Shown here: positions 3,847-8,813 of the stretch, in pieces
Layout: each line of letters starts with the position of its first letter
Position numbering within the stretch: the stretch's first letter is position 1
Source: Verrucomicrobiota bacterium
GTDB taxonomy: Bacteria > Verrucomicrobiota > Lentisphaeria > Oligosphaerales > JAFGRS01
DNA: 29,701 nucleotides
NCBI GenBank assembly: GCA_019136035.1
Contig: JAGVUW010000553.1
Coordinates: 1-29,701 of the forward strand
Direction: 5' to 3'
Made by a program: the position numbers and the translations under genes
Notes under the pieces: model-generated
Database searches by the model: none
What the model saw: the letters and a program-made list of their open reading frames with translations, nothing else
What the model was told of the DNA's origin: nothing

Positions 3847-4719
3847 ATGAAGGGCATCCTCCTTGCCGGCGGCTCCGGCACCCGCCTCTATCCCCTCACC
3901 CGCGTCGCCAGCAAGCAGCTCCAGCCGGTCTACGACAAGCCGATGGTGTACTACCCGCTGTCGACCCTAATGCTGGCCGGTGTGCGCGAGATCCTCATCA
4001 TCACGACCCCCGAGGACCAGTCGCGCTTCCAGGACCTCCTCGGCGATGGCCATGCCTGGGGCCTGGACCTGCACTACGTCGTCCAGCCGCGCCCCGAGGG
4101 CATCGCCCAGGCGTTCATCCTTGCTGAGAGTTTCATTGGCGCCGAGGGCGTTGCCCTCATCCTCGGGGATAACCTCTTCTACGGCCGGATCGGCCTCGAT
4201 CAGATCGTCAGCGGCTTCCGCGGCGGCGCGCAGATCTTCGGCTACCCGGTGCGCGACCCGGAATGCTATGGGGTCATCGAGTTCGACTGCGATGGCAAGG
4301 CCATCAGTCTCGAGGAGAAGCCGGCCCGGCCGCGCAGCCAGTACGCCGTGCCCGGGCTTTACCTCTATGGGCCTGATGTCGTCGAACGCGCCCGACGCCT
4401 CAAACCCTCGCCGCGCGGGGAACTGGAGATCACCGACCTCAACCGCGGCTACCTCGCCGAGGGACGCCTGACCGCCACCCGCCTCGGCCGCGGCATCGCC
4501 TGGCTGGATACCGGCACCCCAGCCGCCCTCCTCGAGGCAAGCCTCTTCATCCACGCTATCGAGACGCGCCAGGGCTTCAAGATCTCCTGCCCCGAGGAGA
4601 TCGCCTACCGCCGCGGTTTCATCGACCGTGATGGCTTCAGGGAACTGGCCGCTGCAGCCCCGAAGTCGGACTACGGCGACTACCTCCGCCGGCTGGCCGA
4701 CGAAGCGATGGCCCTCTGA
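3847..4719 (+). CDS. rfbA: Glucose-1-phosphate thymidylyltransferase (RmlA)
   Basis: MKGILLAGGSGTRLYPLT, SKQLQPVYDKPMVYYPLS, LEEKP, RGELEITD, WLDTGT. Confidence 0.97.
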   Translation: MKGILLAGGSGTRLYPLTRVASKQLQPVYDKPMVYYPLSTLMLAGVREILIITTPEDQSRFQDLLGDGHAWGLDLHYVVQPRPEGIAQAFILAESFIGAEGVALILGDNLFYGRIGLDQIVSGFRGGAQIFGYPVRDPECYGVIEFDCDGKAISLEEKPARPRSQYAVPGLYLYGPDVVERARRLKPSPRGELEITDLNRGYLAEGRLTATRLGRGIAWLDTGTPAALLEASLFIHAIETRQGFKISCPEEIAYRRGFIDRDGFRELAAAAPKSDYGDYLRRLADEAMAL

Positions 4720-4864
4720 GACGCGCCCTGAAGGCACACGGCACACTCCCGGCCAAGGCCGGTACTCGGCGATGACTCGCCGTGCCCTATCCGGCGTTCT
4801 GCGCCGGTGAAGCGGCTATCGCCGTACCCAACCGCGGTGGTGCCTACGAGGCCGAGGCGAGGCG

Positions 4865-4905
4865 TCAACGTTGTCGGCGCCTGGTTGTCCGTGTTCAACG
4901 TTGTC
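4865..4905. repeat. Pair of 11-bp direct repeats with palindromic core
   Basis: TCAACGTTGTC at 4865-4875 and 4895-4905 (30-bp period; core CAACGTTG is self-complementary); GTTGTCC half-site at 4884. Confidence 0.6.
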
Positions 4906-5020
4906 CACCGTTAGGGGGCCAGCCTGGACCCCTGTTTCGCCCCCCGCGCCCTAGGCTGTTCGCGGTCCTGCCCCCGCCTCCCTCCGGCCTCGCCCGCCCG
5001 CCCTCACAGCAGCCCCTGAG

Positions 5021-5086
5021 GTTATTAACGTATAGTGCAGTGGACTCAAGTATACCGCAATGAAGTATAGTGCAGTATCATAAAGA
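5021..5086. repeat. AT-rich island with iteron-like repeats; candidate tubC centromere/operator
   Basis: GTATAGTGCAGT at 5030-5041 and 5065-5076, related GTATACCGCAAT at 5050-5061; a further GTATAGTG at 5239-5246. Confidence 0.6.
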
Positions 5087-5217
5087 ATCGCCAGGCGGCC
5101 GCAAGCCGCGGCGGGAGCAGGGGATAGAGGCGGTGGGACTGGGGCCGAGGGCAGGGCGCCGGGGAGGGTCAGGGGGCAGGGGAGGGGGGCGGCAGGGCCC
5201 CCGGCCAAGGGCGGCGG

Positions 5218-5245
5218 TTGACCTTGAATCAAACTATAGTATAGT
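5218..5245 (+). promoter_or_regulatory. sigma70-type promoter for the tubR/tubZ-like operon
   Basis: TTGACC (5218-5223) - 16 bp - TATAGT (5240-5245), 38 bp upstream of ATG 5284. Confidence 0.7.
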
Positions 5246-5283
5246 GACTTTCAGAACCCCTGGGCTGGAGATTCAGGACGGCC

Positions 5284-5610
5284 ATGAAGGACCTGTTCGA
5301 AGAACAAGTCGAGAACCTCTCCGAGGCCCACTTTCTGGTCCTGTACTGGGCCGCCCAGGGCGAGGGTCGTCAAGCGAAGTACAACATCACCAACTGCTTT
5401 GATGACCTTAAGCACTGCGGCATTACGCGGACCAAGCAGACGGCCGTGGCCGCGGTCGAGGCGCTCAGTGCCCTGCGCTTTGTGACCCTGCGTGGCGAGG
5501 GCAACCGTCGCAACCTGTACATCTCCCGCCACGGCGCCCGCGCCCTCGAGGCATTGGTGCTGCGCCAGAAGTTCACTCCCAGATCATCGGCTTACCTGGA
5601 GGGCCTGTGA
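5284..5610 (+). CDS. Small winged-helix DNA-binding protein, TubR-like (108 aa)
   Basis: Helix TKQTAVAAVEALSALRFV, wing TLRGEGNRRNLYIS, then helix RHGARALEAL; size and position directly upstream of a tubulin-family gene. Confidence 0.7.
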   Translation: MKDLFEEQVENLSEAHFLVLYWAAQGEGRQAKYNITNCFDDLKHCGITRTKQTAVAAVEALSALRFVTLRGEGNRRNLYISRHGARALEALVLRQKFTPRSSAYLEGL

Positions 5611-5611
5611 C

Positions 5612-6709
5612 ATGGTTATCGGCATTGGTGGAGCAGGCAGCAAGGTCGCGGCGAAGCTCGACGCGCAGGCAACTCTGATCAACGTCTCCGAGACCGAGCT
5701 GGAGAAGATACCCCAGGCCGGCCGCCGGATTCTGGCGGTGGTGCATGCCGAGCACGGTCGTTTCCGCGGTTCCCGGAAGAACCCGAGCATTGGGCATGAC
5801 GCCTACCTCTCGGTGCGCCGTGAGCTCCAGGAGCTGGCGCGCGGCGGCATGGTCTTCAGCAGCACCGGCGGCGGCACCGGCAACGGCATCACCACCGGTC
5901 TCCTCCAGGACCTCGCGGCGCGCGAGACCATCCCGGAGTCTGAGAAGACGTCCTTCGGGCTGGTGTTGCCCTATGCCCCGCTCGAGCCGGCCGAATTTGT
6001 GCGCAACACCATCGACTTCCTGCGTGGGCCGCTCTCGGAGGCCATCGACAGCGGCAACACCGGCAACATCTTCCTCTTCAGCAACCGCGTGAAGTTCGAG
6101 TCGAGGCTCTCCGAGGAGGCCTTCAACATCAAGATGGTCGAGTCGCTCAAGGTCTTTCTGGCGATCCCCGACAAGAACGACACCCTGCGCCTGCTGGACG
6201 GTCACATCGACCCGGAGGACTTCAGCCTCTTCATGGCGCGGCCGTACTTCAACCACTTCACCTACTTCGACTACGACCCGGGCACGCCTTTCGGCAAGCA
6301 GCTCGAGGCCAACACGAACGCGCTGTTGCTGCCGCCCGAGACCCCGATCGAGGCGCTCTTCCTGATCGAGGTGCCCGCCGGCGGCGACCCGACGGTGTTC
6401 TACGACGTCCTGCAGCACTTCAACGACCTGAATGTGGCCCCGATCTACAGCGTCGTCGAGAATCCCGAGCTCAAGCAGCCCTTCATCACCGTCGGCCTGC
6501 TCTACTCGCGCAAGCCCGCCGAGCTCCTGGACGACTTCAACAAGCGCAACGAGCAGCACGCCCAGGTGAAGGTGCGCAAGTCCCTCGAGCAGTACGTGGA
6601 TCTGCCGCGCCTTGATGTCAGCCTCGAGAAGGAGGCCAAGCGTGCCGCCAAGCAGCGCGGCAGCGACGAGGATATCCTGCAGGTGCTCAAGCGCCTCGGC
6701 AAGCTCTGA
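5612..6709 (+). CDS. Divergent tubulin/FtsZ-superfamily GTPase, TubZ-like (365 aa)
   Basis: T1 GIGGAGSK, T2 INVSETEL, T3 GSRKNPSIG, T4 signature GGGTGNG (5867-5887), T5 LP..E, T6 FSN, T7-like GHIDPEDF (6200-6223). ATG 5612 lies 1 nt after the tubR-like stop, with GGAGG RBS at 5598. Superfamily is secure; the TubZ subfamily is inferred. Confidence 0.88.
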   Translation: MVIGIGGAGSKVAAKLDAQATLINVSETELEKIPQAGRRILAVVHAEHGRFRGSRKNPSIGHDAYLSVRRELQELARGGMVFSSTGGGTGNGITTGLLQDLAARETIPESEKTSFGLVLPYAPLEPAEFVRNTIDFLRGPLSEAIDSGNTGNIFLFSNRVKFESRLSEEAFNIKMVESLKVFLAIPDKNDTLRLLDGHIDPEDFSLFMARPYFNHFTYFDYDPGTPFGKQLEANTNALLLPPETPIEALFLIEVPAGGDPTVFYDVLQHFNDLNVAPIYSVVENPELKQPFITVGLLYSRKPAELLDDFNKRNEQHAQVKVRKSLEQYVDLPRLDVSLEKEAKRAAKQRGSDEDILQVLKRLGKL

Positions 6710-6806: not shown

Positions 6807-8813
6807 ATGATGGCCGAACACCTTCGCATGGCGAGCTGGTGGATCACCTGGAAGGACCTCGACTGGCCCTCGCCGGACAATCTCGACCTCATCCGCCGGC
6901 GTGCCGACGCCATGGCCGGGGCGCATGTGAACGCCGCCGGCGTCTTCGGGGCGCACTTTCGCTGGGACTTCCTGCCCATCTTCCCCGTTCTGCACGACTA
7001 CCTGGCCACGGTCCGGGCGGAGCTGAAGGCCCGCGGTATCCGCCTGATCGACCACCACTCCGCCACCCTGATCCACCGCTACGAGACGCGCGCCGAGATG
7101 CAGACGGTGAAGCTGCACTCCGGCCCACACCTGCCATTCGCCCCGACCTGGAGCGCCGCCGCCAGTTGGGAGTACCGCGGTCGGAAACTCAACGCCTGGC
7201 GCGAGATCGATGTTCGCGACGGATCCGTGCTCTTCCATCCCGGCTATACCGCCGAGATGTTCTGCTACCAGAATGACGACTTCATCGACGCCTATCTGGA
7301 GTACGTCCAGGAGTTGCGGCGCGACACCGACATCGATGGACTGATGAGCGACGACATCTCGCAGTACATGCGCTGGCCCGGCTGCGGCTGTACCGCCTGC
7401 CGGGAGAAGTTCCGGCGCCGTACCGGGATGGCGCTGCCGGCGGCGAGTGACCGGAGGTTCTGGGCCAACTGGGACAGCCCGGCCTGGCTCGAGTGGATCG
7501 ACCTGCGTTTCGAGGCCGCGTCCCACTTCTTCACCCGCCTGCGGTCGATCCTGCCGGAGGCCTTCCCGCTGATGAGCTGCTGCTCCAACAGCTCGTCGGC
7601 CACGGCGCCGCAGATGGCCCATGACATCCGTGACATGAACGCCGGCTGCAACCTGGTCCACCTCGAACTCTGCGGCAACACACCGCCTTACCCGCACGAC
7701 CCCAAGACCAAGAGCCCGCCGATCGCCAGCCGGATCATCTCGTCGCTGCATCACCTCGGCGCCGCAGACGAGAAGGGCAGTGAATGTGTCGGGCAGGGCT
7801 ATGGCTTCACGGCAGCGACGGCCGGCATCGTCTGGGCGGTCAACAAGACCGTCGGTGCGGCCTGCTGGTTCTCGACCCTGAAGGCACGTCTGGGGCTGCC
7901 TGACAGGATCCTGGCGACGCTGCCGGATGACGCCGCGCCGGCCGCCACGGCGTTCGGCTTCGAGAAGAGCCACCCGGAGCTCTTCAATGGCCACCCCGCC
8001 GCACAGGCCGCCGTGCTCTTCCCCTACGAGACCCGCAACCACACCGCCTTCGGCAGTCTCTTCAACGGCGTCACGCGTGACTTCGAGGACACCCTCTCCC
8101 TGCTCTTCCGCAACGGCATCACGCCGGTGGTCGAGACGCAGATGCCGACCACGACAGCGCGCTGCCCGCTCCTGATCCTGCCCTCGGCCCTGCGGCTGAC
8201 CGCCGCGGAGCAGGACGCCCTGCAGGCGTTCGTCCGCGCTGGCGGTGTCGTCCTGGCCACCGGGCCCTTCGCCCTCGGCAGGCCATGGGGTGGCAGCATC
8301 ACGGTACCCGACTCTTTCTTTACCTCGGACGAGTGGATGAAGGCGCCCTTCCCGGCCTTCCCCGGCCGGCCGGAGTGGGAGGCCCTGCCCTCCGGGGTGC
8401 TCTGGAACCCGTGCCGCATCCAGGATTCGGAGGTCTTTGCCGGTGACCTGCTGGGCAAGGTCCGCCAGCACGCGGTACCCCTGCCGGTCGCCATCACTTC
8501 TGCCGAGGGCTTCCTGACGCTGGTCCACCGCATGCCGGACGGGGCGTTGACCGTCCATTGCCTGGCCGCCGAGTTCGCCACGGAGATCGATCAGGAGCTC
8601 GACGCCATGCGCTACCACCGCTCGCGCGTCAATCTCATCACCCGGGCCGAACCGATGGGCACCGACGGCACCATCGGCCTGACCGCCGCCGGCGCGGTCC
8701 AGGCCTTCTCACCCCTGACACCCGGACGCGAGCCCGCGGTCAGCCGCACGGCCGACCGCGTCACGGTCACGCTGCCGGAGCGATGTCCGTACGCCGTCCT
8801 GCGGCTGGCCTGA
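6807..8813 (+). CDS. Hypothetical glycoside-hydrolase-like protein (~668 aa)
   Basis: Start MMAEHLRMASWW after a purine-rich RBS. DGLMSDD followed by GCGCTAC..F resembles TIM-barrel GH/GH42-like proteins; AAVLFP..LLILP..L..FVRAGGVVLATG resembles the GH42 trimerisation (GATase-like) domain. Confidence 0.6.
   Translation: MMAEHLRMASWWITWKDLDWPSPDNLDLIRRRADAMAGAHVNAAGVFGAHFRWDFLPIFPVLHDYLATVRAELKARGIRLIDHHSATLIHRYETRAEMQTVKLHSGPHLPFAPTWSAAASWEYRGRKLNAWREIDVRDGSVLFHPGYTAEMFCYQNDDFIDAYLEYVQELRRDTDIDGLMSDDISQYMRWPGCGCTACREKFRRRTGMALPAASDRRFWANWDSPAWLEWIDLRFEAASHFFTRLRSILPEAFPLMSCCSNSSSATAPQMAHDIRDMNAGCNLVHLELCGNTPPYPHDPKTKSPPIASRIISSLHHLGAADEKGSECVGQGYGFTAATAGIVWAVNKTVGAACWFSTLKARLGLPDRILATLPDDAAPAATAFGFEKSHPELFNGHPAAQAAVLFPYETRNHTAFGSLFNGVTRDFEDTLSLLFRNGITPVVETQMPTTTARCPLLILPSALRLTAAEQDALQAFVRAGGVVLATGPFALGRPWGGSITVPDSFFTSDEWMKAPFPAFPGRPEWEALPSGVLWNPCRIQDSEVFAGDLLGKVRQHAVPLPVAITSAEGFLTLVHRMPDGALTVHCLAAEFATEIDQELDAMRYHRSRVNLITRAEPMGTDGTIGLTAAGAVQAFSPLTPGREPAVSRTADRVTVTLPERCPYAVLRLA

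Follow-up and report, generated by a model that had tools for sequence, protein, structure and literature searches.

The DNA analysed here, called the window, is a stretch of 29,701 nt on the forward strand of contig JAGVUW010000553.1 (assembly GCA_019136035.1). It comes from a Verrucomicrobiota bacterium (Lentisphaeria; Oligosphaerales; JAFGRS01), which is represented by a metagenome-assembled genome (MAG) of 4.8 Mb in 866 contigs. The locus of interest consists of two adjacent genes, their promoter, and two blocks of short repeats upstream of the first gene. Its features are as follows.

5023–5077, no strand assigned: distal array, 11 slots of 5 bp (x-A-[C/G]-T-y), 55 bp in all
5087–5217, forward strand: G-rich spacer between the blocks, GC 0.78–0.81, GC skew about +0.4
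5218–5223, forward strand: −35 hexamer TTGACC (GGTTG at 5216–5220 is invariant in seven aligned relatives)
5232–5247, no strand assigned: predicted proximal operator, three phased units at 5232–5246
5240–5245, forward strand: −10 hexamer TATAGT, inside the proximal operator
5275–5278, forward strand: probable ribosome-binding site, AGGA, separated by 5 nt from the ATG (CAGGA does not vary among relatives)
5284–5610, forward strand: tubR-like gene, 108 aa, winged helix-turn-helix protein
5612–6709, forward strand: tubZ-like gene, 365 aa, GTPase of the tubulin/FtsZ fold

The locus was compared with tubulin-like loci gathered from three sources: 22 from GTDB genomes, 25 more from a sample of the phylum, and six from metagenome contigs. 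The genome sample comprised 301 genomes of the phylum, and the search for arrays covered 111 genomes of the class. Counts of arrays and genomes are descriptive and carry no tests; related genomes are not independent.

The 108-aa protein has no Pfam, NCBIfam or PHROG match. Using a profile built from 25 family members, the best match in the PDB was the TubR of Bacillus (Priestia) megaterium pBM400 (4asn), which aligned over the full length. The same structure is the top PDB fold match (TMt 0.82, rmsd 2.3 Å, 21% identity) of the AF2 model, a winged helix with a pLDDT of 95.3, and the TubR of pBtoxis (3m8e/3m8f) is matched as well. The protein can be described as TubR-like, with a similarity that is marginal at the level of sequence (E = 0.0046). 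At the N-terminus of its recognition helix, the residues TRTKQ are invariant. In TubR, this is the part of the helix that enters the groove (PMC5016525). The family is small: a search of 1.84 billion representatives yields 13 clusters at 50% identity. A library-wide profile search returned no Firmicute TubR, and no bridge to one, at library-wide E-values; its top match, P0241 (7,727 aa), was rejected as a spurious match to a surface-protein repeat. Apart from the window, 42 loci include upstream DNA, and a tubR-like frame directly preceding the tubulin-like gene was identified in all except four.

The second gene starts with an ATG at 5612, 1 nt past the stop codon of the tubR-like gene (5608–5610). 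Its 365-aa product carries the tubulin signature GGGTGxG, in which G87, G88, G90 and G92 are invariant, and the acidic T7-like residues D200 and D203 are also invariant. The match to Pfam Tubulin reaches 23.5 bits, which is below the cut-off. By profile, the protein is equally far from FtsZ (2.8e-6) and from TubZ/RepX (5e-6), and it is therefore not filed as a member of the TubZ family. Fold comparison gives a similar picture, with values of 4.5e-17 for FtsZ (TMq 0.62) and 1.4e-16 for TubZ (TMq 0.66). The TubZ structure 4ei7 provides the longest alignment (386 columns) and the highest query TM (0.66), because the long C-terminal helix of the model (residues 302–327) is also covered. This helix is followed by a low-confidence linker and then by a conserved tail, residues 352–365, in which L356, L359, R361, G363 and K364 are the conserved positions. 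The assignment of the two neighbouring genes as TubR-like and TubZ-like, made in the initial annotation from the sequence alone, is supported by profile and fold matches.

The tail was also modelled together with its presumptive partner. Two copies of the TubR-like protein with residues 296–365 of the TubZ-like protein gave a score of 0.77, compared with 0.14 for the best of three controls; this score is a model confidence, obtained with alignments built for this analysis, and is not a measurement. The mark used was attained by 58 of 80 solved complexes and by 2 of 110 mismatched pairs. Between runs, at least 86% of contacts agreed, and the pLDDT of the partner was at least 50. In the model, tail residues 352–365 sit on residues 21–28 and 80–93 of the TubR-like protein, away from its DNA-binding face. 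The modelling supports binding of the TubZ-like tail to the TubR-like protein.

The repeats upstream of these genes had been read as direct iterons of 8–12 bp. The strings themselves are present in the sequence as described: the 12-mer GTATAGTGCAGT at 5030–5041 and 5065–5076, a variant GTATACCGCAAT at 5050–5061, GTATAGTG at 5239–5246 on the −10 box TATAGT, and the palindrome ACTATAGT at 5233–5240. There are three copies of GTATAGTG in the window (5030, 5065 and 5239), against an expectation of 0.09, and no shuffle out of 100 reached three. Across the whole 4.8-Mb assembly, the exact 12-mer occurs only at 5030 and 5065. The offsets between the copies first noted are 20 and 35 bp. Since both are multiples of 5, the repeat unit was redefined as one of 5 bp. 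The repeats are real and conserved, but the direct iteron has to be replaced by a 5-bp-phased unit, TA[G/C]TA, that occurs in both orientations.

Described in this way, the distal array contains both copies of the 12-mer and the variant. Seven of its 11 slots hold a perfect A[C/G]T triplet (5034, 5039, 5044, 5049, 5064, 5069 and 5074), and these seven, which are all the A[C/G]T triplets of the distal cluster, share a single phase. A and T are retained in two more slots, at 5024 and 5059. Over the homologous loci, the oriented unit is TAGTA (reverse complement TACTA), and slots are occupied by A at the second position in 94% and by T at the fourth position in 90% of cases. With A and T at these two positions, the unit is a 5-bp pseudo-palindrome, and the central G or C sets its orientation. 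Orientations are mixed within arrays, with some preference for runs of the same orientation, and the usual array length among homologous loci is 11 slots. Relative to the ATG of the tubR-like gene, the distal array lies at −261 to −207 and the proximal block at −52 to −38, so that about 155 bp separate the two.

The proximal block coincides with the promoter. TTGACC, a 16-nt spacer and TATAGT together give 10 of 12 matches and form the sole sigma70-like site in 4600–5400. The three proximal units read AACTA TAGTA TAGTG, and 15 nt of this block, ACTATAGTATAGTGA (5233–5247), are invariant in seven relatives. An overlap between the promoter-proximal copy and the −10 box had been proposed at the outset, and it recurs: in at least 11 loci, a TTGnnn −35 element is followed after 16–17 nt by a −10 element that lies inside phased units.

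Transcript data are available from two metatranscriptome studies. Logan contigs from one of these, a sludge study, derive from a relative of about 95% identity; they cover 5215–6709 and continue upstream. Contigs of this kind give no start, strand or level of transcription, and contigs from DNA sequencing runs break at the same places. The second study contributed short contig pieces inside both genes. An Rfam search of 4300–5700 produced no match.

The sequence of the spacer between the blocks is unconserved, and its length is 49–334 bp in most loci, but in 19 of 23 loci the coding strand has more G than C. Looping between the two blocks, suggested in the initial annotation from the split layout, is conceivable but unsupported; of the spacer's properties, only the G-over-C bias recurs, and the length varies. 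In the window, the AT-rich array is bracketed by the G-rich spacer on one side and by a C-rich flank (4930–5015, GC skew −0.29) on the other. A hairpin formed by the C-rich arm, the AT core and the G-rich arm was considered and rejected, as single-strand folding gave z = −1.04, no better than shuffles. Slightly further upstream, TCAACGTTGTC occurs twice, 30 bp apart (4865–4875 and 4895–4905), each copy with the palindrome AACGTT. This pair is not kept in the relative of 98% identity.

The motif is conserved upstream of homologous operons, where it again takes the form of a distal block and a promoter-proximal block on the −10 box. When distances between pairs of A[C/G]T triplets upstream of homologues are counted, 221 pairs are found at 5 bp, 173 at 10, 137 at 15 and 107 at the next multiple of 5, against about 10 pairs at other distances. 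No arrays were found upstream of homologues at periods of 3, 4, 6, 7, 8, 11 or 12; the harmonic period of 10 gives four. Chains of at least four phased units are present in 30 of 38 upstream regions, compared with 1 of 411 control windows, leaving eight loci in which such a chain is absent. Arrays of at least six units show the same concentration, with 28 in the 18.9 kb upstream of tubR-like genes and one in 240 kb elsewhere.

The single outside array of this size belongs to locus L029. Two to three MITE-like repeats of about 100 bp are inserted there between the distal array and the promoter, some 100–730 nt upstream of the tubR-like gene. The array has been displaced to −734 because of this insertion, and the spacer is correspondingly long, at 621 bp. 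In all loci examined, the arrays sit on the same side of the tubR-like gene.

Alignment with seven relatives of 86–98% protein identity (98%, 88% and 86%) indicates what has been retained over shorter distances. The intergenic DNA has largely diverged. What survives is GGTTG at the −35 element, 15 nt over the −10 element, and the distal array's phase; conservation is highest in the proximal block that overlies the −10 box. The 12-mer GTATAGTGCAGT is not kept even in the 98% relative, where its copies become GTATAGTAGAGT and GTATAGTAAAGT, yet the 5-bp phase is maintained. On the sequence comparison, a phase that is kept while the letters change is the signature of selection on short phased units, not on long iterons.

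The array is also exclusive to this locus. A genome-wide scan for motif clusters had been proposed, and in the organism's own 4.8-Mb MAG, the distal block proved to be alone in reaching five phased units or more. Elsewhere in that genome, three phased A[C/G]T units are found only at G000:C265:1891-1903 (ACTGCACTGTACT), which may be chance. Exact five-unit arrays are absent from all 23 and all 14 genomes searched in two families that lack tubRZ (37 in total). Those five-unit array matches that could be placed (in genomes G277, G163, G292 and G247) adjoin tubRZ, and the remainder are simple tandem repeats.

The tubulin-like gene was found in 26 of the 301 sampled genomes of the phylum, always as a single copy. 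Eight families have it in every genome sampled, and two sister families (f5 and f6) in none of 69. Among the carriers are genomes assembled as single contigs, of 5.7 and 3.9 Mb. Searched by tblastn with the TubZ-like protein, 72,556 plasmids and 50,697 phage records contained no match. One copy on single-contig genomes, together with this lack of plasmid and phage matches, indicates that the module is chromosomal and vertically inherited. The flanking genes that were read are housekeeping genes, and no rep or integrase gene is among them. Neighbours are common to close relatives only (rfbA upstream and cysK downstream), and flanking genes differ between families, so that the module appears self-contained. 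A conserved third gene resembling TubY was not found at the loci examined.

An origin-proximal centromere is not supported, as proximity to dnaA is inconsistent over three complete genomes: the distance is 43 kb in G203, 1.49 Mb in G163 and 1.08 Mb in G070. Replacement of ParB by tubRZ, genome by genome, was rejected. Of the 301 sampled genomes, 197 have canonical ParB (TIGR00180, E <= 1e-20), and 196 of these belong to other classes of the phylum. G247 is the sole carrier found in the window's class, irrespective of tubRZ, and ParB is also missing from the 69 f5 and f6 genomes that have no tubRZ. ParB and tubRZ are found together in both G203 and G247.

The obvious comparison is with the tubulin-based partition systems of plasmids. 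The direct repeats of the pBtoxis tubC are about 12 bp long. The TubZRC locus of pBtoxis, like those of pBsph and pXO1 (RepX), has the same components in the same order as the present one: repeats, a promoter, a small winged-helix gene and a gene for a tubulin-like GTPase. In these systems, the tubC site precedes tubR, is divided into blocks and consists of several direct repeats, and TubR covers and represses the promoter (PMC6009700, PMC5016525). Both recognition-helix N-termini of a TubR dimer enter one major groove, and only the clustered TubR complex binds the TubZ tail (PMC6009700, PMC5016525). TubR has further been described as coating both sides of tubC (reviewed in PMC5016525). The TubR of pBtoxis represses its own promoter and binds the tail of TubZ; the corresponding tail contact here is a prediction of the model.

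Set against tubC, the present site shares the placement directly upstream of the tubR gene, the short repeats in at least two blocks and, as far as sequence can indicate, the overlap with the operon promoter. There are differences as well. Direct repeats are replaced by 5-bp-phased pseudo-palindromes in both orientations, and no period of 11 or 12 bp is seen. The replicon is not a low-copy plasmid or prophage: systems of the pBtoxis type belong to low-copy plasmids of Firmicutes, whereas the Lentisphaeria system is passed on vertically as a single chromosomal copy. Lastly, the pBtoxis-type proteins are too distant from the present ones for BLAST, and even the TubR of pBM400, the best match by both sequence profile and fold, is marginally similar.

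Other systems share individual traits. The TubZRC of the Clostridium botulinum prophage c-st also has 5-bp iterons (TTGAC and A/TGAA) and a split centromere, with blocks of high and low affinity and a complex that reaches the promoter (PMC6009700). Its iterons are 6 bp apart, giving a period of 11 bp on one face of the helix, in contrast to the period of 5 bp seen here. The c-st tubC extends over more than 350 bp, compared with blocks of 55 and 15 bp, and it is phage-borne and accompanied by TubY, whereas no conserved third gene was seen at the present loci. A TubZ-type gene on a chromosome is known from the TubZ/TubY pairs of some Clostridia (PMC7762940). Those pairs are without TubR, and a segregating role is doubted for them because Soj/Spo0J are present; here, TubR and the array are kept. 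Finally, the arrays bound by omega (pSM19035), ParG and ParR also use short units as both operator and centromere, and omega recognises 7-bp heptads packed tandemly in direct and inverted orientation (PMC5016525). These are ribbon-helix-helix proteins that work with ParA- or ParM-type motors, and they are not homologous to the present system.

Taken together, the two repeat blocks are probably a split, tubC-like binding site of the TubR-like protein, serving both as an operator for the operon's own promoter and as a platform for filament attachment. Both blocks would be bound by the 108-aa protein encoded just downstream. Each 5-bp unit is two-fold symmetric and successive units are half a turn apart, so that successive TubR-like dimers might occupy opposite faces of the helix and coat about 55 bp on both sides. 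Alternatively, dimers could span units 10 bp apart on each face. Because the three-unit proximal block extends across the −10 box, its occupancy should shut off the tubR–tubZ promoter, resulting in autorepression. The 11-slot distal block would act as a high-density platform on which the TubR-like protein is clustered. In the modelled complex, a groove between helices 2 and 5 would then be offered to the TubZ-like tail, and the locus would be tied to filaments.

The layout resembles the combined centromere and operator of the plasmid tubulin partition systems, and a part in DNA segregation is unproven. For a chromosomal module, a centromere of the plasmid kind would have no evident replicon to act on. 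A stronger version of the preferred reading, in which the array is a true chromosomal centromere and TubR/TubZ filaments position or segregate the chromosome or one of its domains, seems unlikely. Such a centromere would have a build not yet described, in which some 11 palindromes of 5 bp follow one another at half-turn intervals and both faces of the helix are covered.

The chief rival reading is that the blocks are an operator only. Autoregulation would then be cooperative or looped, the filament would have a cytoskeletal, division or positioning job instead of a segregating one, and the distal block would not be a centromere. Several observations agree with it, including the single-copy, vertically inherited, chromosomal state of the module, the inconsistent proximity to dnaA, the strong conservation of the proximal block on the −10 box, and the chromosomal TubZ/TubY pairs of some Clostridia that are thought not to segregate DNA (PMC7762940). 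On the other hand, an array of 11 slots and 55 bp, located 75–300 bp upstream and kept across families, exceeds what a repressor needs, and the conserved TubZ-like tail docks in the model on the DNA-binding protein, outside its DNA face. The Clostridial argument depends on the presence of ParAB, and canonical ParB was detected in one sampled genome of this class, G247; that published reason for doubting segregation does not apply here. On this evidence, an operator with no attachment function is a minority view, rather less probable than a combined site.

Two further readings would detach the array from the TubR-like protein altogether. Wherever units are joined, TAnnnT hexamers arise unavoidably on both strands, and the distal block could accordingly be a tandem of −10-like hexamers (TATAGT, TATACT and TACAGT every 5 bp), acting as a polymerase trap or giving rise to a leader or small RNA; the metatranscriptome contigs from the relative of about 95% identity do run on upstream of the proximal promoter. 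These contigs cannot show where a transcript starts, however, and the possibility that the motifs are −10 boxes of several promoters, raised in the initial annotation, finds little support: the distal hexamers have no −35 partner, and 4600–5400 holds a single promoter-like site. Nor is there an Rfam match. A strict 5-bp phase, mixed orientation and a fixed size of about 11 slots are not properties of promoters, and the genome's other promoters lack arrays of this kind, which makes this reading highly improbable. The other possibility is that the units are sites for another factor, such as a nucleoid protein or global regulator, or are origin iterons left by an integrated plasmid or phage. AT-rich islands of repeats in GC-rich genomes do often mark mobile DNA or origins. 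Against this, the genome has a single such array, its link to tubRZ holds in families whose neighbouring genes differ, the flanking genes that were read are housekeeping genes without rep or integrase, the search of 72,556 plasmids and 50,697 phages found no match, and every sampled genome of eight families has exactly one copy of the module. There is very little likelihood, on these grounds, that the site belongs to a different factor or an origin.

To our knowledge, tubulin-based (type III) partition has been characterised only on plasmids of Bacillus and Clostridium and on one prophage. A literature search found no paper on a TubR/TubZ pair in Lentisphaerota. The present system is type III-like. 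Its new elements are the grammar of the site, its footprint, its uniqueness in the genome, its absence from sister families without the operon, and the modelled tail interface. A repeat site, an adaptor and a tubulin-like GTPase have been kept together as a single-copy chromosomal module in several families, within a class of the PVC group in which canonical ParB was found in just one sampled genome. The DNA part is sufficiently well defined, with its coordinates, a 5-bp unit with two near-invariant positions, and a 15-nt operator, to make the question testable. A half-turn-phased palindromic unit would also be a clean substrate for both-face coating by TubR-type dimers, a matter that is open for the plasmid systems (PMC6009700).

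FtsZ, called with TIGR00065 at E <= 1e-25, shows a separate pattern among the families of the class. Family f2, which belongs to the same order and carries tubRZ (for example, G163 and G277), yielded it in only 1 of 21 genomes, whereas it was detected in almost every other family, that of the window (3 of 3) included. In the complete 5.7-Mb genome G163, the FtsZ match reaches only 46 bits. The FtsZ of this family is either very divergent or lost. In the genome of the window itself, an FtsZ-like gene fragment of 31 bits is cut off by a contig end (G000:C267:7-267), and this genome's own FtsZ is for that reason probably present but unassembled.

A final observation concerns the DNA downstream of the module. 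A gene of 668 aa (6807–8813), with a weak match to DUF4350, lies between the tubulin-like gene and cysK. It is also present in the 98% relative (L058) and is absent from the 88% relatives (L061–L063), where cysK is directly next to the tubulin-like gene. The 668-aa gene is an insertion or a deletion, and not part of the module.
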